DNA of 19,317 nt, taken from UHGV virus genome UHGV-1601204; one strand, 5' to 3'. Source of the stretch: a virus. The notes under the pieces are model-generated. The model made no database searches, was not told where the DNA came from, and was given only the letters and a program-made list of their open reading frames with translations. How positions within the stretch are numbered: the stretch's first letter is position 1; the number at the start of each line of letters is the position of its first letter. Below are positions 1 through 6,663 of the stretch, piece by piece. Made by a program: the position numbers and the translations under genes.

Positions 1-186
1 CAGATTAAAGAGCGTGGCGCTTTGCCGATGATTGATCGCGGTGATATCCGTCAGGCTATCGACCGTTGCAGCAATATATGGGCTTCACTGCCGGGCGCTG
101 GTTATGGTCAGTTCGAGCATAAGGCTGACAGTCTGATTGCAAAATTCAAAGAAGCTGGCGGAACGGTCAGAGAGATTGAGGTATGA
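1..186 (+). CDS. R: Endolysin R (lambda R-like lytic transglycosylase), 3' portion; 5' end lies upstream of the window
   Basis: Frame 1 reads [61 protein letters not shown], then TGA at 184-186. This matches the C-terminus of phage lambda R as I recall it. The stop overlaps the Rz start (GTATGA). Confidence 0.85.
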
Positions 187-647
187 GCAGAGTAACCGCG
201 ATTATCTCCGCTCTGGTTATCTGCATCGTCGTCTGCCTGTCATGGGGTGTTAATCATTACCGTGATAACGCCATCGCCTACAAAGAACAGCGCGACAAAA
301 ATGCCAGAGAACTGAAGCTGGCGAACGCGGCAATTACTGACATGCAGATGCGTCAGCGTGATGTTGCTGCGCTCGATGCAAAATACACGAAGGAGTTAGC
401 TGATGCGAAAGCTGAAAATGATGCTCTGCGTGATGATGTTGCCGCTGGTCGTCGTCGGTTGCACATCAAAGCAGTCTGTCAGTCAGTGCGTGAAGCCACC
501 ACCGCCTCCGGCGTGGATAATGCAGCCTCCCCCCGACTGGCAGACACCGCTGAACGGGATTATTTCACCCTCCGGGAACGACTGGTAATGATGCAGGCCC
601 AACTTGAAGGTGCTCAGCAATACATAACCGAGCAGTGTTTAAAGTAA
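183..647 (+). CDS. Rz: i-spanin Rz (inner-membrane spanin subunit)
   Basis: 154-aa ORF with an N-terminal hydrophobic anchor ([14 protein letters not shown]) and a coiled-coil-rich periplasmic part. Near-identical to lambda Rz from memory. Sits directly after R, as in the lambda lysis cassette. Confidence 0.93.
403..588 (+). CDS. Rz1: o-spanin Rz1 (outer-membrane lipoprotein), embedded in Rz in the +1 frame
   Basis: 61-aa ORF wholly inside Rz in another frame. Signal peptide with lipobox (LVVVGC) and a proline-rich mature part ([16 protein letters not shown]). Matches lambda Rz1 from memory. Confidence 0.9.
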
Positions 648-784
648 AATCTTAACTACAATATGATTCATTTTGATGATTGTTTCATAAGGAACAGTGA
701 AGTAAGATCTAAGAGGAGTTAAATTTTATACAGTATAATCATAATATTGCAGCAAGGTGGTTATAATTGAAAGAATATTTAGAT

Positions 785-2242
785 ATGAATACATCTCATG
801 TAAGAGTTGTTACTCATATGTGTGGGTTCCTGGTTTGGCTCTATAGTCTTTCAATGTTGCCACCAATGGTTGTAGCATTGTTTTATAAAGAAAAAAGCCT
901 GTTCGTTTTCTTTATAACTTTCGTTATATTTTTTTGCATTGGTGGCGGAGCGTGGTATACAACTAAGAAATCTGGCATTCAATTACGTACCCGTGATGGG
1001 TTTATTATAATTGTAATGTTTTGGATTTTGTTTTCTGTTATTAGTGCATTCCCTTTATGGATTGACTCAGAACTTAATTTAACGTTCATTGATGCTCTGT
1101 TTGAAGGGGTTTCTGGAATAACAACAACAGGAGCAACTGTAATTGATGATGTTAGTTCATTACCTCGGGCATATTTGTACTATCGGTCACAGTTAAATTT
1201 TATAGGTGGTTTAGGAGTTATTGTTCTGGCGGTTGCTGTATTGCCATTATTGGGTATTGGTGGTGCAAAGCTTTATCAGTCAGAAATGCCGGGGCCATTT
1301 AAGGATGACAAACTCACTCCCCGCCTGGCCGATACGTCACGGACACTGTGGATAACTTATTCTTTATTAGGTATTGCTTGTATTGTCTGTTATAGACTTG
1401 CAGGAATGCCTTTGTTTGATGCTATTTGTCACGGGATTTCCACAGTTTCGCTTGGTGGTTTCTCAACTCATAGCGAGAGTATCGGATATTTTAATAACTA
1501 TTTGGTTGAGCTGGTGGCTGGTTCTTTTTCCCTGCTATCGGCTTTCAACTTCACTCTTTGGTATATTGTTATTAGCAGGAAAACGATAAAACCTTTAATC
1601 AGAGATATTGAACTTCGTTTCTTTCTGTTAATAGCCTTAGGGGTGATCATTGTTACCTCTTTCCAGGTCTGGCATATAGGTATGTATGACTTGCATGGAA
1701 GTTTTATTCATTCGTTTTTTCTTGCCAGCTCCATGCTCACTGATAATGGTTTAGCTACGCAGGATTATGCAAGTTGGCCCACGCACACGATAGTGTTTTT
1801 GCTGTTGTCAAGTTTCTTTGGGGGATGTATAGGTTCAACTTGTGGTGGAATTAAGTCACTTCGATTTCTTATACTTTTCAAACAAAGCAAACACGAGATA
1901 AATCAGCTTTCTCATCCCAGAGCGTTGTTGAGTGTAAATGTAGGAGGGAAGATAGTTACAGATCGTGTAATGAGGTCTGTATGGAGTTTCTTTTTTCTTT
2001 ATACTCTCTTCACGGTGTTTTTTATACTGGTGTTAAATGGTATGGGATATGATTTTCTTACATCATTTGCAACAGTGGCTGCATGTATTAATAATATGGG
2101 ATTAGGTTTTGGGGCTACTGCATCGTCATTCGGAGTGCTTAATGACATTGCAAAATGTTTAATGTGCATAGCTATGATTCTTGGTCGCCTTGAAATTTAT
2201 CCTGTTATTATATTGTTTTCAGGTTTTTTTTGGCGCTCCTAA
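785..2242 (+). CDS. trkG: Trk-system potassium uptake protein TrkG (TrkH/TrkG family membrane transporter); moron cargo gene
   Basis: 485-aa polytopic membrane protein starting MNTSHVRVVTHMCGF at ATG 785 (the track's 767 start is an upstream TTG). Recognised as TrkG/TrkH family (GxTTTGATV and EMPGPFKDDKLTPRLADT motifs, C-terminal LGRLEIYPVIILF). Hand-counted 60-nt lines are about 32-38% GC versus about 50-55% in neighbouring phage genes. In E. coli K-12, trkG sits in the Rac prophage next to the Rz-like genes. Confidence 0.9.
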   Translation: MNTSHVRVVTHMCGFLVWLYSLSMLPPMVVALFYKEKSLFVFFITFVIFFCIGGGAWYTTKKSGIQLRTRDGFIIIVMFWILFSVISAFPLWIDSELNLTFIDALFEGVSGITTTGATVIDDVSSLPRAYLYYRSQLNFIGGLGVIVLAVAVLPLLGIGGAKLYQSEMPGPFKDDKLTPRLADTSRTLWITYSLLGIACIVCYRLAGMPLFDAICHGISTVSLGGFSTHSESIGYFNNYLVELVAGSFSLLSAFNFTLWYIVISRKTIKPLIRDIELRFFLLIALGVIIVTSFQVWHIGMYDLHGSFIHSFFLASSMLTDNGLATQDYASWPTHTIVFLLLSSFFGGCIGSTCGGIKSLRFLILFKQSKHEINQLSHPRALLSVNVGGKIVTDRVMRSVWSFFFLYTLFTVFFILVLNGMGYDFLTSFATVAACINNMGLGFGATASSFGVLNDIAKCLMCIAMILGRLEIYPVIILFSGFFWRS

Positions 2243-2328: not shown

Positions 2329-2363
2329 CCCCAGTAGCACTGGCTGCTGGGGTGCGTTTTATT
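2329..2363 (+). terminator. Putative intrinsic terminator downstream of trkG
   Basis: 10-bp stem (2329-2338 pairing with 2343-2352, one G-U wobble) with loop ACTG, then TGCGTTTTATT. The U-tract is short and interrupted. Confidence 0.4.
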
Positions 2364-2379: not shown

Positions 2380-3171
2380 ATGAGCGAGAAATTAAAGATA
2401 GTCTATCGCCCATTACAAGAATTGTCACCGTATGCGCACAACGCCAGGACGCACAGTACTGAGCAGGTGGCACAACTGGTAGAAAGTATTAAGCAATTCG
2501 GCTGGACTAATCCGGTGCTGATTGACGAAAAGGGCGAAATTATTGCGGGTCACGGTCGTGTTATGGCGGCTGAAATGCTCAAAATGGATTCTGTTCCGGT
2601 CATTGTTCTGTCTGGCCTGACGGATGAGCAGAAAAAGGCGTACCGCCTGGCAGATAATCGCCTGCCGATGAATGCTGGCTGGGATGAAGATCTGTTGCGG
2701 ATGGAGCTGTCGGACCTAATCAATGCTGATTTTGATGTCTCCCTGACAGGCTTCATCCCGACAGAAATTGATGAACTGTTGACGGATGTTTTGCCCGGTA
2801 CAGGAAATGAGGAGGAGCCGTATACGACGAAAATTGATACGCCTGTTTATGAGCCGTCGGGCGGTAAACCGGATATCAGTGAACTGTACGACGATACGAA
2901 AACTCAGGAGCTGATCAGCCGGATACGTTCGGCGTCCCTTGAGCCTGATATTGAGAAATTCCTCCTGTGTGCGGCAGAACGTCACACGGTGTTTAATTTC
3001 AGCAGAATTGCGGACTATTACGCTCACGCCCCCTCTGAAATTCAGTGTTTTTTCGAGGAGTCGGCGCTGGTGATCATTGATTATCAGCAGGCTATTGAAA
3101 ATGGATTTGTCCGGATGACGCAGCGCATGGTGGAGATCATGCATGGTGGTGAGGAGGAGGAATATGCGTGA
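2380..3171 (+). CDS. ParB-like nuclease domain (ParB/Srx fold) protein, function unknown
   Basis: 263-aa ORF. N-terminal region resembles the ParB N-terminal domain: LSPYAHNARTHSTEQVAQLVESIKQFGWTNPVLIDEKGEIIAGHGRVMAA with a GxGR-type motif. The acidic C-terminal half is unassigned. SD-like AAGG upstream. Position matches ynaK downstream of trkG in Rac, as I recall. Confidence 0.7.
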   Translation: MSEKLKIVYRPLQELSPYAHNARTHSTEQVAQLVESIKQFGWTNPVLIDEKGEIIAGHGRVMAAEMLKMDSVPVIVLSGLTDEQKKAYRLADNRLPMNAGWDEDLLRMELSDLINADFDVSLTGFIPTEIDELLTDVLPGTGNEEEPYTTKIDTPVYEPSGGKPDISELYDDTKTQELISRIRSASLEPDIEKFLLCAAERHTVFNFSRIADYYAHAPSEIQCFFEESALVIIDYQQAIENGFVRMTQRMVEIMHGGEEEEYA

Positions 3172-4096
3172 TGATTTTTGCGCCTTTATTCTGACTCACG
3201 GGCGACCGGACAAAGTTCTGACTTACCGGACGTTGCGTCGTGCTGGCTATACCGGGAAAATTTTTATCGTTGTTGATGATGAAGATAAGACACGGCATCA
3301 GTACATGGCTGAATTTGGTGAACAGGTGCTGGTGTTTTCCAAAGCCGATATCGCCAGTCGTTTTGACGAAGCCGATAATTTCTGTGACCGCCGCTCAATT
3401 TTTTACGCCCGTAATGCCTGTTTCGACCTGGCAAAACTGGTCGGGTGTAAATACTTCATTCAGCTCGATGATGATTATCACGAGTTCCAGTTTCGGGTGG
3501 ATCGCAACTATGACCAGGCCTATTTTCCGATAAGGAAACTGGATGCGATCCTTTCTGAAATGCTGGCGTACTACGAATCAATACCTGCTCTTTCCATCGC
3601 TATGTCGCAGGGCGGGGATTTTCTTGGTGACAATGGCGGCCATGCTTCGTGGGTGAAACGCAAGGCAATGAACAGCTTTATCTGTTCGGTTGATCGACCG
3701 TTCTCATTCATGGGGCGCATTAACGAGGATGTGAATACGTACACGAATCTCGGTCGCTGTGGTGAATTGTTTATGACGATCGGTGCTGTCCAGTTAGGGC
3801 AGAAACAGACGCAGAAAAACAGCGGCGGAATGACCGAGCTGTATCTGGATTCCGGAACCTACGTTAAAAGTTTTTACTCCGTCATGTATGCGCCGTCGTG
3901 CGTAAAAATCTCACTGATGGGTGCCAGCCATAAACGCATTCACCATCAGGTCACCTGGAACAACGCTGCAGTAAAAATCCTTCACGAAAAATACAGGAAG
4001 AAGACACCCTGCATATCAATGGGGGTGACAAATGATTCCGTATTCGAAAGTCGAGTCTCTGGCAGCGTGCCGGATGACTGCACAACAAATCGCTGA
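3164..4096 (+). CDS. Hypothetical protein with DxD-type acidic motifs; possible nucleotide-sugar (GT-A-like) transferase, unverified
   Basis: 310 aa from ATG 3164, preceded by a strong SD (GAGGAGGAGG, 3151-3160); the track's 3143 start is less likely. Start overlaps the ParB-like stop (ATGCGTGA), suggesting translational coupling. Motifs: hydrophobic strand then acidic cluster (KIFIVVDDED; YFIQLDDDYHEF) and a C-terminal His cluster (HKRIHH). The fold assignment is my inference only. Confidence 0.6.
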   Translation: MRDDFCAFILTHGRPDKVLTYRTLRRAGYTGKIFIVVDDEDKTRHQYMAEFGEQVLVFSKADIASRFDEADNFCDRRSIFYARNACFDLAKLVGCKYFIQLDDDYHEFQFRVDRNYDQAYFPIRKLDAILSEMLAYYESIPALSIAMSQGGDFLGDNGGHASWVKRKAMNSFICSVDRPFSFMGRINEDVNTYTNLGRCGELFMTIGAVQLGQKQTQKNSGGMTELYLDSGTYVKSFYSVMYAPSCVKISLMGASHKRIHHQVTWNNAAVKILHEKYRKKTPCISMGVTNDSVFESRVSGSVPDDCTTNR

Positions 4097-4283
4097 CGTT
4101 CTGGATGTTGATCTGAACCGACTGAAAGAAAATCGGGAAGCAATGACAGATTTTTATGCGGCCATCCGTAAGGGCAGAGCGAAAGGTGAAGCCGAGTTAC
4201 GAGCGGCATTGTTTAAGCTTGCCAGAAAAGGGGATGCCTTTGCTCTGCGCGAACTACTCAGGGTGGATAAAAATCAGGACTAA
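4032..4283 (+). CDS. Small hypothetical protein, putative helix-turn-helix DNA-binding protein upstream of terS
   Basis: 83-aa ORF with SD-like GGGGGTGA (4021-4028) just before ATG 4032. Basic helical C-terminus (AAIRKGRAKGEAELRAALFKLARKGDAFALRELL). Overlaps the upstream gene by 65 nt, so the true start could be internal (for example ATG 4074). Confidence 0.5.
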   Translation: MIPYSKVESLAACRMTAQQIADVLDVDLNRLKENREAMTDFYAAIRKGRAKGEAELRAALFKLARKGDAFALRELLRVDKNQD

Positions 4284-4286
4284 CTG

Positions 4287-5381
4287 ATGAGCAGACCGGA
4301 CTGGGGGGCGTTGCAGCAGGAGTATATTGCTGAATACACCCGCTCCGGTATATCTCCGGTGGCATGGTGTGAAGCAAGGGGACTGAATTACGCAACAGCC
4401 CGTCGTTACATCAAAAAAACTCCGAAAAATGCGCAGACAGAAATGTGCAAAACTGCGCAAAAAAGTGCGCAGAAAAAATCTGCGCAGACTGCACAAAAGC
4501 GGAACGAAAAATCTCAGGAAAAAAAGCCAGTATTCGATGCGGGCCTGAATGAGGGCGACGCGGAGGAATTTTCGTTCTGTCCCGATGAATTCGGCATTTC
4601 TGACCAGCAGGCTAAGTTTGCGATGCTTGTTGCTCAGGGTAAAAAGCCGACAGAGGCGTACCGACTAGCCGGTTATGAGGGGCAAGGTGCGACAGCTAAT
4701 AGCAACGCCAGTCGTATGCTTAGAAATGCCAGGGTTTTTCGCGCTATCAGCTACTTCCGCAATCAGTACCAGAAACGCTATTCCGCAGACCTGGATTTAC
4801 TAGTGAGTCAGTTGATGGCCATTGTCCTGGCCGACCCCAATCAGCTTGCACAATTTCGCCGTGTTAACTGCCGTTATTGCTGGGGCGAGAATCATCTCTA
4901 CCAGTGGCGCGATATAGCAGAATTCGACAAGGCAGCGGCGCAGGCTTCCAGAGATGGCAAGCCCGAACCGGAATATGGAGGCCTCGGCTTTGTTGATAAC
5001 GCCATACCCAATCCGGACTGCCCGAAGTGCTGCGGTGAGGGAACGGGACAGCTTTATATGGCTGATACCACTCTGCTTGATGGGGATGCGCGGCAATTAT
5101 ATGCAGGGGCAAAATTCGGAAAATTCGGCGTTGAGATCCTGCTGGAGGATAAGGCTGCCGCCCGGCGTGAATTGTTGCGTTTGCTTTCTGCTGGCGGGGC
5201 TTTATGTGCAGATAAGCGGCTACAGGAACTGGAAATTGAACGGCGCAGAATGGAAAACCAGAAGCTGCGCAAAGAGATCGAAACGGTGGAAGATAATGAA
5301 CATCCCCAGCCTGTGGCGATCAATATTAATGTGGTTGATGCCAGAGTAAGGAGTGATGAAGATGATCTCTCCGACGCTTAA
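4287..5381 (+). CDS. terS: Terminase small subunit (TerS), Terminase_2-like
   Basis: 364 aa directly upstream of, and overlapping, the large terminase. N-terminal HTH-like segment (ISPVAWCEARGLNYATARRYIKK), then a low-complexity K/A/Q linker, then a region resembling the Terminase_2 small-subunit domain (AKFAMLVAQGKKPTEAYRLAGYEGQGATANSNASRMLRNARVFRAISYF). C-terminal Cys cluster and coiled coil. Confidence 0.8.
   Translation: MSRPDWGALQQEYIAEYTRSGISPVAWCEARGLNYATARRYIKKTPKNAQTEMCKTAQKSAQKKSAQTAQKRNEKSQEKKPVFDAGLNEGDAEEFSFCPDEFGISDQQAKFAMLVAQGKKPTEAYRLAGYEGQGATANSNASRMLRNARVFRAISYFRNQYQKRYSADLDLLVSQLMAIVLADPNQLAQFRRVNCRYCWGENHLYQWRDIAEFDKAAAQASRDGKPEPEYGGLGFVDNAIPNPDCPKCCGEGTGQLYMADTTLLDGDARQLYAGAKFGKFGVEILLEDKAAARRELLRLLSAGGALCADKRLQELEIERRRMENQKLRKEIETVEDNEHPQPVAININVVDARVRSDEDDLSDA
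4428..4500 (+). repeat. Array of TGCGCA-core direct repeats inside terS; candidate pac / TerS recognition site
   Basis: Exact TGCGCA at 4430, 4454, 4466 and 4481, plus variants TGTGCA (4444) and TGCACA (4490), most followed by A-runs. Spacing 9-15 bp. Encodes the linker KNAQTEMCKTAQKSAQKKSAQTAQKR. Confidence 0.4.
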
Positions 5382-6663
5382 TGTGCCTCAGGCGCGATTT
5401 CTTTCAATGCCCCATAAATTTAAAGCCTATATTGCTGGTTTTGGCTCGGGCAAAACATGGGTTGGGTGTGGCGGCATATGCAAGGGGATTTGGGAGCATC
5501 CAGGTATAAATCAGGGATATTTTGCGCCAACGTATCCCCAAATTCGCGATATTTTTTACCCTACAGTGGAAGAAGTTGCTGCTGACTGGGGATTGAACGT
5601 AAAAATTAATGAGGGAAATAAAGAGGTTCACTTTTATTACGGACGCCAGTATCGGGGAACCACTATCTGCAGATCGATGGAGAAGCCACAAACGATCGTC
5701 GGTTTCAAAATTGGTAATGCGTTGGTGGATGAACTGGACATTTTGCCGAAGGAAAAAGCCAGAACGGCGTGGCGCAAGATAATTGCACGTATGCGTTATA
5801 AGATTGATGGACTTCGCAACGGTATTGACGTTACAACCACGCCGGAAGGATTCAAATTTGTCTACGAGCAGTTTGTTAAAGCCGTGCGTGAAAAAACAGA
5901 GCTGGCCTCACTGTATGGTCTGGTGCAGGCATCTACTTTCGATAATGAAAAGAACCTGCCAGCAGATTACATTCCTTCGCTTCTTGAATCATACCCTCCA
6001 GAGCTGATTAAAGCCTATCTTCGAGGACAGTTTACTAACCTGACAAGTGGTACTGTTTACCATCAGTTTGACCGGAAACTGAATAATTGCGAAGAAGTGG
6101 AGCAGCCAGGGGAGCCGATTTATATTGGGATGGATTTTAACGTTGGAAAGATGGCGGGAATCGTCCATGTGCTGCGTTTGGGGCTTCCATGTGCGGTAAC
6201 TGAAATCATCAATGCCTACGATACGCCGGATATGATCCGCATCATTAAAGAACGCTTCTGGCTGTATGATGGGAATGATTACCGGAAAGTGAGGGAAATT
6301 TATATTTATCCAGATGCTTCCGGGGATTCCAGAAAATCAAGTAACGCAAGTACGACGGATATAGCCCAGCTTAAGCAGGCTGGTTTTAACGTTGTGGTGA
6401 ACAGCTCGAACCCGCCAGTAAAAGATCGCGTTAACTCAATGAATGCAATGTTCTGCAATGCCAATGGTGAGCGTCGCTATAAAGTTAATGTGAAGCGTTG
6501 CCCGTTATATGCCGAATCTCTGGAGCAACAGGTCTGGGATGAGAAGGGGGAGCCTGATAAAAAATCTGGCAATGATCACCCGAATGATGCCGGAGGTTAT
6601 TTCATCGTTAAGCAATTCCCTATTGTCAAACCGACCGGAAGAGTCACATCACTTCGGATTTAA
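5362..6663 (+). CDS. terL: Terminase large subunit (TerL), ATPase plus nuclease
   Basis: Walker A (AGFGSGKT), Walker B-like (ALVDELD), and C-terminal nuclease-type acidic motifs (IGMDFN, YPDASG, DHPNDAGG). Start chosen at ATG 5362, 8 nt after SD AAGGAG (5348-5353); the track's 5353 GTG is an alternative. Overlaps the terS end. Confidence 0.9.
   Translation: MISPTLNVPQARFLSMPHKFKAYIAGFGSGKTWVGCGGICKGIWEHPGINQGYFAPTYPQIRDIFYPTVEEVAADWGLNVKINEGNKEVHFYYGRQYRGTTICRSMEKPQTIVGFKIGNALVDELDILPKEKARTAWRKIIARMRYKIDGLRNGIDVTTTPEGFKFVYEQFVKAVREKTELASLYGLVQASTFDNEKNLPADYIPSLLESYPPELIKAYLRGQFTNLTSGTVYHQFDRKLNNCEEVEQPGEPIYIGMDFNVGKMAGIVHVLRLGLPCAVTEIINAYDTPDMIRIIKERFWLYDGNDYRKVREIYIYPDASGDSRKSSNASTTDIAQLKQAGFNVVVNSSNPPVKDRVNSMNAMFCNANGERRYKVNVKRCPLYAESLEQQVWDEKGEPDKKSGNDHPNDAGGYFIVKQFPIVKPTGRVTSLRI

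Follow-up and report, generated by a model that had tools for sequence, protein, structure and literature searches.

Several members of the TAGT family of glycosyltransferases (GTs) glycosylate DNA, namely the T2/T6 beta-glucosyl-HMC-alpha-GT, the TET-associated phage GTs, and the trypanosome enzyme JGT. The TAGT family was defined by Iyer et al. 2013, who, according to later papers, also proposed ParB targeting; a link between ParB and DNA-modification genes was noted by computation in the same year, and in the proposal of Aravind and coworkers, ParB would guide the DNA-modification machinery at the time of packaging. This link was shown experimentally for dioxygenases in 2025-26. ParB-like proteins without a DNA-binding domain activate phage thymine dioxygenases on double-stranded DNA (dsDNA), and in ParB176 the N- and C-terminal domains are both required for that activation (PNAS 2026, PMC13229309). 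The T4 alpha-GT, in turn, co-purifies with the gp45 sliding clamp. A large GT survey set aside ∼65% of GT contigs, those without a neighboring base-modification gene, as less obviously related to hypermodification. Here we analyze a gene pair in UHGV virus genome UHGV-1601204, a stretch of 19,317 nucleotides (the window) that represents the late part of an intact, Rac-like lambdoid prophage of Escherichia coli. Gene 1 encodes a ParB-like partner protein, gene 2 encodes a TAGT-family GT, and a small basic protein (gene 3) follows. We give roughly even odds (probability about 0.5) to the reading that the two genes are a cassette for DNA glycosylation, expressed late and dependent on the partner (gene 1), that would act before packaging.

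A conserved TAGT glycosyltransferase

By its profile matches and motifs, gene 2 is clearly a GT-A glycosyltransferase of the TAGT family. It matched Pfam TAGT (PF20691) with an E value of 3.8e-35 (122.1 bits, cutoff 27.5) and phrog_842 with an E value of 7e-104; the NCBI label for the E. coli protein is "GREB1-related protein." The AlphaFold2 (AF2) model was moderate as a whole [predicted local distance difference test (pLDDT) score of 67], with values above 90 in the N-terminal half and low confidence in the C-terminal half, and its top Foldseek matches were GT-A enzymes (ThuS, SpsA, ColGalT1, AvpGT, GnT-I, and glycogenin). A sequence search of the Protein Data Bank (PDB) with the GT profile returned noise only. 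The active-site pattern that the large GT survey gives for TAGTs, R...DDD...EDY/F, is intact: R14, D102-D104, and E188-D189..Y193 are invariant or nearly so in our alignments (A1 and A4), where D38/D41 and R258/H260/H261 are also invariant. The motifs read H-G-R14, D38/D41, D102-D-D104-Y, N187-E-D189..Y193, and R258-x-H260-H261. The initial annotation had guessed at a GT-A fold from two acidic strings, IVVDDED and IQLDDDY, and a His cluster. The family and fold matches bear out this guess, and all three features are real, containing the invariant residues D38 and D41, D102-D104/Y105, and R258/H260/H261, respectively. Gene 2 is predicted to be a metal-dependent (DxD) catalyst that uses a nucleotide sugar.

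The GT is widespread and unusually uniform, with 43-59% identity across more than 12 phyla and an archaeal virus. The hosts include Proteobacteria, Bacteroidota, Firmicutes, Saccharibacteria, Planctomycetota, Verrucomicrobiota, Acidobacteriota, and one archaeon, among others. Sequenced viruses that carry the pair are Lactobacillus phages phi jlb1 and c5 (in c5 as ORF1/ORF2, directly after cos), Nocardia phage NTR1, a Porphyromonas phage, and the haloarchaeal virus HHTV-2. Closer to the window, the 1.9-kb stretch containing genes 1-3 is present at ≥99% identity in ten sequenced phages, and 867 of 5,426 complete E. coli genomes (about 16%) carry essentially all of it.

The GT and its partner are inherited together. 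The open reading frame (ORF) of the partner overlaps the GT start in all 94 enterobacterial and IMG/VR loci. When one genome per species was scanned, an ORF bearing the C-terminal domain (CTD) of the partner lay directly upstream of the GT in 65 of the 68 loci with enough upstream sequence to be scored and 0.8-1.6 kb upstream in the other three. As a negative control, the T4-like TAGT of Aeromonas phage 65 (22% identity) had no such partner nearby; identity of the GT clade to T4-like TAGTs is 22-24%. Judged by this gene order, the functional unit is two inseparable genes, 1 and 2, and we infer, from the strict co-occurrence alone, that the GT depends on its partner.

The partner combines a ParB-like domain with a previously undescribed module

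Gene 1 consists of a ParB/Srx N-domain, a two-helix segment, a disordered linker, and the CTD, as seen in its AF2 model and alignments (A2 and A3). The model was moderate (pLDDT 61), with low confidence in the linker and CTD. The protein matched Pfam ParB_N (PF02195) with an E value of 9e-7 (29.3 bits, gathering cutoff 26.3) and phrog_620 with an E value of 1e-90. Its profile matches in the PDB were Noc and ParB (E 3e-5), and Foldseek matched the model to Noc, ParB-CTP, PadC, and KorB (E 1e-6). The ParB/Srx-like N-terminal domain and GxGR motif named in the initial annotation are thus both recovered, with AGHGR aligned opposite AGERR, the GERR motif of Noc/ParB, and ADN opposite IEN. Conserved residues of the domain are N21, S36, G41, G57-H-G-R60, D92-N93, and D102. 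The CTP-pocket residues N21/R23, R60, and D92-N93 are kept and, going by alignment only, the Glu of GERR is replaced by His and its first Arg by Gly. The closest relatives of the first ∼140 aa were fusions of ParB_N to DNA methyltransferases (phrog_498, E 9e-51; PADLOC MTase_II, E 1.5e-38). A canonical partition ParB of the ParABS type was considered and rejected: TIGR00180 scored 38 bits against a cutoff of 58, GERR reads GHGR, and the segment after ParB_N is acidic. No parA was present in the annotated Rac-like prophage region, and no helix-turn-helix (HTH) DNA-binding domain was detected in gene 1 with Pfam. The isoelectric point (pI) of the partner was 4.0-4.7 in every homologue examined.

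Further conserved features lie in the rest of the protein. The linker motif is kept from E. coli to Haloarcula virus HHTV-2 and to phages of Lactobacillus, Nocardia, and Vibrio; P155 never varies, and [YF][ST] was found in every member examined. Residues A199, R201, A211, Y214, E226, V231, and D234 are invariant in the CTD alignment. A search with the CTD alone retrieved 1,189 representative clusters, in which the CTD was always C-terminal, and ParB_N, never the GT, was its sole fusion partner among the ten longest members. As judged by sequence, it is the CTD and not ParB_N that is the conserved, obligatory half of gene 1, and this module of motif plus domain appears not to have been described before. 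No Pfam family matched the CTD above threshold. A subthreshold match to Phage_Gene47 (mycobacteriophage L5 gp47-like; E 0.03-0.05), which perhaps reflects remote kinship or noise and was not used, recurred in all three CTDs tested over AAERHTVFNF..IADYY (window 2797-3171, L135:7607-8011, and L098:4459-4878).

The pair occurs in two genomic layouts

In the first layout, ParB_N-fused partners open the packaging module, a short distance upstream of the terminase. The initial annotation had suggested asking whether the pair co-occurs upstream of terS in other prophages. In our gene-neighborhood survey, 44 of 58 species loci had a recognizable TerL no more than 4 kb downstream, a lower bound given the limited TerL seed set. 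The terminases that it adjoins are Terminase_6N, Terminase_3, and GpA-type enzymes, among others. This synteny is kept in Proteobacteria, Firmicutes, Actinobacteria, and Bacteroidota, and in the archaeal virus the pair lies ∼3 kb upstream of terL.

In the second layout, which accounts for a sizeable minority of loci, the partner is a CTD-only protein of ∼135 aa (motif plus CTD) encoded between DNA polymerase and sliding clamp in large uncultivated phages, and the locus is devoid of ParB_N. Vibrio jumbo phage pv27 (E 1e-49) and a Lachnospiraceae phage have this arrangement; among relatives in IMG/VR, 76 of 80 are of this form. The GT is adjacent to the CTD gene in 59 of 71 cases; 42 of 63 loci have a beta sliding clamp no more than 5 kb away, 51 loci have PolA within 8 kb, and only 4 of 63 have TerL downstream. 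Nearly half of these loci (30/63) have two or more TAGT genes, in orders such as PolA-TAGT-CTD-TAGT-clamp and CTD-TAGT-CTD-TAGT-clamp. Genes for primase, DnaB, RecA, the clamp loader, cytidylyl- and nucleotidyl-transferases, and an extra GT are found nearby. In both layouts, the context of the pair, as read from the annotated neighbors, is always DNA metabolism.

Four of the loci have tandem adaptor-TAGT pairs between PolA and the beta clamp (L132:2970-6196, L169:6460-10156, L135:1735-9962, and L193:9249-9971), and the same phages also carry Caps_synth/DXD glycosyltransferase and cytidylyl-/nucleotidyl-transferase genes. From its gene content, each set looks like a multistep glycan pathway within a replisome module. 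Three proteins without a Pfam match recur near the replisome-linked version, of 228 aa (50 loci), 263 aa (35 loci), and 172 aa (35 loci). Their genes are found about 4.2 kb upstream of the adaptor gene and 3-5 kb beyond it (L185-L264), and they are candidates for a missing precursor-making step.

No annotated hydroxymethyl-pyrimidine pathway accompanies the pair

The acceptors of characterized DNA-acting TAGTs are 5-hydroxymethylcytosine (5-hmC), 5-hydroxymethyluracil (5-hmU), or a sugar already attached to them. The annotations of the near-complete Rac-like prophage (recET to tail fiber gene J, int end excluded), c5 (31.8 kb), and phi jlb1 (38 kb) contain no gene of the TET/5mYOX, thymidylate-synthase-like, or hydroxymethylase type. 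Likewise, no hydroxymethyl-pyrimidine gene occurred in the Pfam-annotated flanks or the most recurrent neighbor clusters of either layout. Because no such pathway is encoded, the acceptor is probably not phage-made 5-hmC or 5-hmU; it would be either a canonical DNA position or something not yet recognized. The lack of the pathway is consistent, and this point appears to be new. A literature search on modified DNA in HHTV-2 found nothing relevant.

Methyltransferase genes were seen upstream of the pair in a few cases. A C5-cytosine DNA methyltransferase lies 5-8 kb upstream in only 10 of 73 species loci (L181:2973-4643 and nine others), and an N6/N4 methyltransferase-helicase fusion lies upstream in six loci (L113:59-1924 and five others). 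These upstream methyltransferases (5-8 kb) are mostly in Bacteroidota- and Kiritimatiellae-type prophages.

Locus organization and gene 3

Four tightly packed genes on the + strand (genes 1-3 and terS) precede terL and the portal gene (Table 1). The three co-oriented genes of the initial annotation were found as overlapping ORFs at exactly the coordinates it had listed, and their location between lysis/trkG and terS confirms the accessory cargo slot that it had proposed.

Table 1. Features of the window in the region of genes 1 and 2
Feature	Position	Strand	Evidence or remark
Rz/Rz1	183-647		Upstream of the trkG moron
trkG moron	767-2242		Low GC content, 38-39% vs. 48-52% around it
Strong terminator-like hairpin 3′ of the trkG moron	2329-2352	+	10-bp stem, 7 GC pairs, T-rich tail
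Gene 1, partner protein, 263 aa, pI 4.5, full-length form of E. coli ynaK	2380-3171	+	ParB_N, phrog_620, alignments, AF2/Foldseek
ParB/Srx NTP-binding-type domain and helical segment, aa 1-135	2380-2784	+	Noc/ParB alignment; match to ParB_N-DNA methyltransferase fusions
Linker motif Y148-T-T-K-I-D-T-P155-V-Y-E-P-S160	2821-2859	+	Family consensus [YF][ST]xKIxxPxYEP
Acidic helical CTD, aa 170-255	2887-3144	+	FLLxAAERHTVFNF..IADYYAHA..Q.LFE.SALVIID
Coupling junction: GGAGGAGG Shine-Dalgarno, GT ATG 3164, partner TGA 3169-3171	3152-3171	+	
Gene 2, TAGT-family GT-A glycosyltransferase, 310 aa	3164-4096	+	PF20691, phrog_842, invariant motifs, AF2/Foldseek
Gene 3, basic HTH protein, 83 aa, TerS-like	4032-4283	+	phrog_309, co-inheritance with terS type
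terS	4287-5381	+	Terminase_2
terL	5353-6663	+	Terminase_6N/6C; portal further downstream

No promoter-like site was found between the hairpin at 2329-2352 and gene 1. With a hairpin after trkG and no promoter of its own, the pair would be expressed only late and in dependence on Q-antiterminated transcription, and in lysogens the hairpin would insulate it from transcription of the moron. Translation of gene 2 starts at ATG 3164, preceded by a GGAGG Shine-Dalgarno sequence (an alternative ORF start at 3143 is possible), and its start overlaps the stop of gene 1 by 8 nt (ATGCGTGA). The tail of gene 2 overlaps gene 3 by 65 nt in a different reading frame; the E. coli GT has a 21-aa C-terminal extension here that is not present in other genera. 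Gene 3 ends 3 nt before the terS ATG. Compared with Klebsiella- and Enterobacter-type orthologues, all three genes are under strong purifying selection (nonsynonymous divergence, dN, of 0.13-0.31 with saturated synonymous sites). Their ratio of nonsynonymous to synonymous divergence (dN/dS) is at most about 0.1, which rules out chance ORFs.

The product of gene 3 is small, basic (pI 9.2), and helical, as first described, and HTH-like. It matched phrog_309, "terminase small subunit," with an E value of 8e-23 over only positions 145-218 of 319, resembles the N-terminal part of a TerS family, and had no Pfam match. GenBank/RefSeq starts the gene at 4074 (69 aa); the conserved N terminus M[IL]P[YF]xK[VI]ESLAACRM favors the start at 4032 (83 aa) that the initial annotation had used. 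That annotation had treated the three genes as one module, which did not hold up: gene 3 accompanies Terminase_2-type terS in 76 of 76 loci and is absent from 20 loci that keep genes 1 and 2 beside other terminase types, so that it tracks this terS type and not the pair. By this inheritance, gene 3 belongs to the packaging module, probably as an accessory TerS-like HTH protein; it would not be the TerS itself, since a full-size terS follows.

Related prophages show the region in other states. In E. coli K-12, ynaK is only the first ∼254 nt of gene 1 (window 2380-2633) joined directly to ydaY, a gene of the tail region that immediately follows the tail tube gene in the intact prophage. This junction indicates that a single deletion of ∼11-12 kb removed the GT, the terminase, and the head and proximal tail genes from the Rac remnant of K-12. 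A Klebsiella relative (L010) has the pair and lacks trkG. Related E. coli prophages (L002/L003/L004:1-3182) carry a defense-like moron upstream of Q/lysis with an AAA ATPase and a Peptidase_S8 protein. Another moron (L014:10180-12505) contains an amidohydrolase, a noncanonical purine NTP pyrophosphatase, and a SIR2 protein. In a degraded E. coli prophage with a related terS (L182:4316-5534), genes for a scabin-related ADP-ribosyltransferase and a subtilase-family AB5 toxin B subunit lie between Q and the holin gene.

Possible functions of the pair

In the reading that we prefer, which follows the DNA-modification role before packaging raised in the initial annotation, the GT would transfer a sugar from a nucleotide sugar to phage DNA late in infection. 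The C-terminal ∼120 aa of the partner (motif plus CTD) would serve as a GT-specific adaptor or activator, and the ParB/Srx N-domain would couple the GT to duplex DNA, much as ParB does for the thymine dioxygenases and as ParB_N presumably does where it is fused to phage DNA methyltransferases. The presence of an adaptor without ParB_N beside a beta clamp gene in replisome-encoding phages suggests that the adaptor links the GT to a DNA-tracking platform. This platform would vary, being the replisome clamp in CTD-only phages and a ParB-type clamp or nucleoside triphosphate (NTP) switch in temperate phages without a replisome. The identity of the GT over so many phyla and an archaeal virus argues for a universal substrate. 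The terminator after trkG, the lack of an own promoter, and translational coupling into terS would confine expression to the late phase, and glycosylation would precede packaging by the terminase, possibly protecting the DNA against restriction. A more specific proposal, in which the sugar is placed directly on DNA without a 5-hydroxymethyl-pyrimidine (on a canonical base, on the backbone, or on an acceptor made by the partner domain), is tentative, and we think it somewhat more likely to fail than to hold.

Several points weigh against a DNA-glycosylating cassette. Every characterized DNA-acting TAGT needs a hydroxyl on 5-hmC, 5-hmU, or an attached sugar, and with no source of 5-hydroxymethyl-pyrimidine annotated, a role on DNA needs unprecedented acceptor chemistry. 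GREB1, another protein with a TAGT domain, has a protein as its substrate. With its strong acidity and lack of an HTH, the partner is no obvious candidate for DNA binding; in gene 1, His takes the place of the catalytic Glu of GERR, and the motif decays to GNHT/GNKT in distant members. The AF2 models of both proteins are only moderate.

The leading rival, which we consider unlikely overall, is O-glycosylation of a protein. The substrate would be either the partner itself, modified at the [YF][ST] of its linker much as with glycogenin or GREB1, or one of the packaging or virion proteins. GREB1 has a TAGT domain and O-GlcNAcylates a protein, the disordered linker of the partner carries a strictly conserved, hydroxyl-bearing [YF][ST]...Y motif, and there is no evident acceptor on DNA. 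The Foldseek matches also include glycogenin and peptide S-glycosyltransferases, although these are generic GT-A ones. However, the last Tyr of the motif (Y157) is not conserved in the Porphyromonas member, the neighborhood consists of replisome or terminase genes and not structural genes, and the ParB_N is of the type fused to DNA methyltransferases. Moreover, the tandem TAGTs and nucleotidyltransferases in replication modules resemble DNA-glycan pathways. We see a distinctly smaller chance that the pair acts in counter-defense by glycosylating a universal nucleotide or signaling metabolite, or a host nucleic-acid-associated factor, late in infection, which would dampen host immunity or reprogram the cell. 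Conservation over all host phyla fits a universal small molecule as well as DNA, ParB/Srx folds bind NTPs, and one of the structural matches was AvpGT (with Ara-A), a nucleoside glycosyltransferase of the GT-A type. Nevertheless, nothing specific speaks in favor of this idea, and anti-defense genes are usually early, whereas the pair would be late and coupled to terS. A PADLOC search, moreover, matched only ParB_N (to the N terminus of the MTase_II model), with no match for the GT, CTD, or gene 3.

The remaining explanations are much less probable. A packaging accessory, in which the ParB-like protein marks or organizes the concatemer for the terminase and the GT fold is structural or regulatory, would fit the synteny directly upstream of terS/terL in four phyla and the short distance to terL in the archaeal virus. 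We nonetheless regard it as very improbable: the catalytic residues of the GT are invariant, the pair stands beside several unrelated terminase families, and the CTD-only variant lies in replication modules far from the terminase. K-12-type Rac remnants are uninformative on essentiality. Equally slim is the prospect of a lysogen defense or superinfection exclusion function that hypermodifies the DNA of invading 5-hmC/5-hmU phages, for example by sensitizing it to type IV restriction. Such a role has been proposed in the literature in general terms for prophage GTs, and all known TAGT DNA acceptors do occur in the DNA of other phages. The upstream terminator and the lack of an evident promoter place the pair in the late operon, however, and it also occurs in phage c5, which has no annotated integrase, and in large phages with their own replisome; moreover, neither the GT nor the CTD matches a known defense model. 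We give almost no weight to seroconversion or envelope glycosylation like that by the prophage enzymes TarP or Gtr. Although TarP is the top PDB match of phage TAGT-like GT-A models in the literature, here a GT with such high identity serves Gram-negative, Gram-positive, Saccharibacteria, and haloarchaeal hosts with very different envelopes, in a genomic context that is always DNA metabolism.

Comparison with known systems

The protein families concerned are already known and named. The pair itself was described in the initial annotation as not recognizable as a characterized system, and this stands: we found no experiment on the cassette in the searchable literature, only the family-level names TAGT, "GREB1-related protein," and ynaK. 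The terminase-linked and replisome-linked layouts of the pair appear to be new. Should the sugar be placed directly on DNA that has no 5-hydroxymethyl-pyrimidine, the DNA modification would be of a new class, found in viruses from more than 12 bacterial phyla and from haloarchaea, with an adaptor that uses either a ParB-type NTP switch or the replisome clamp. If the pair modifies DNA, the chemistry could not follow the known hydroxymethyl-pyrimidine route, and ParB-like activation of DNA-modifying enzymes would extend from dioxygenases to glycosyltransferases. An unnoticed DNA modification would exist in common E. coli, Salmonella, and Klebsiella prophages, in dairy Lactobacillus phages, and in a haloarchaeal virus, with a bearing on restriction evasion, host range in phage therapy, sequencing artifacts, and enzymatic tools for DNA labeling. 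If the target is instead a protein, protein glycosylation of the GREB1 type would have its first counterpart in a virus of prokaryotes. In either case, the analysis defines a new partner domain that is directly testable, and the system is easy to test, comprising two small genes in an inducible E. coli prophage with clear catalytic residues.

With the DNA-acting TAGTs (the TET/5mYOX-associated phage GTs, the T2/T6 enzyme, and trypanosome JGT), gene 2 shares family membership, the GT-A fold, and the active-site pattern; its C-terminal RxHH region is common even to T4-like TAGTs. It differs in that no hydroxymethyl-pyrimidine gene is annotated in the genomes checked and in having an obligatory partner protein, which the T4-like member lacks. 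Its clade is also unusually conserved for TAGTs, at 43-59% identity across phyla. GREB1 and gene 2 have the TAGT domain in common, as the NCBI name of the E. coli protein records, but GREB1 is a large cytoplasmic O-GlcNAc transferase of animals that acts on estrogen receptor alpha, with no such partner and no phage context. The T4 alpha-GT provides a precedent for a glycosyltransferase physically tied to a clamp through gp45, and here the CTD-only variant adjoins a beta-clamp gene in 42/63 loci; the T4 enzyme, in contrast, has another fold (Pfam PF11440) and acts on 5-hmC, and a clamp interaction of the pair would be an extrapolation from gene order.

The closest parallels concern the partner. 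As with 5mYOX176/ParB176 (PMC13229309), an enzyme of a DNA-base-modifying type is encoded beside a ParB-like protein. The two ParB-like proteins have a common layout of N-terminal nucleotide-binding domain, short helical segment, unstructured linker, and C-terminal domain with no DNA-binding domain, a likeness in described architecture. Unlike 5mYOX176, the enzyme here is a glycosyltransferase and not a dioxygenase, and the CTD also occurs without ParB_N. The N-terminal 140 aa of the partner are closely related to those of the ParB_N-DNA methyltransferase fusions (phrog_498; PADLOC MTase_II; Kaljevic et al. 2025, PMC12704722), and both the fusions and the partner are prophage-enriched. In those fusions, ParB_N is covalently attached to the enzyme, whereas here it is fused to the adaptor domain, with the enzyme made as a protein of its own under translational coupling.

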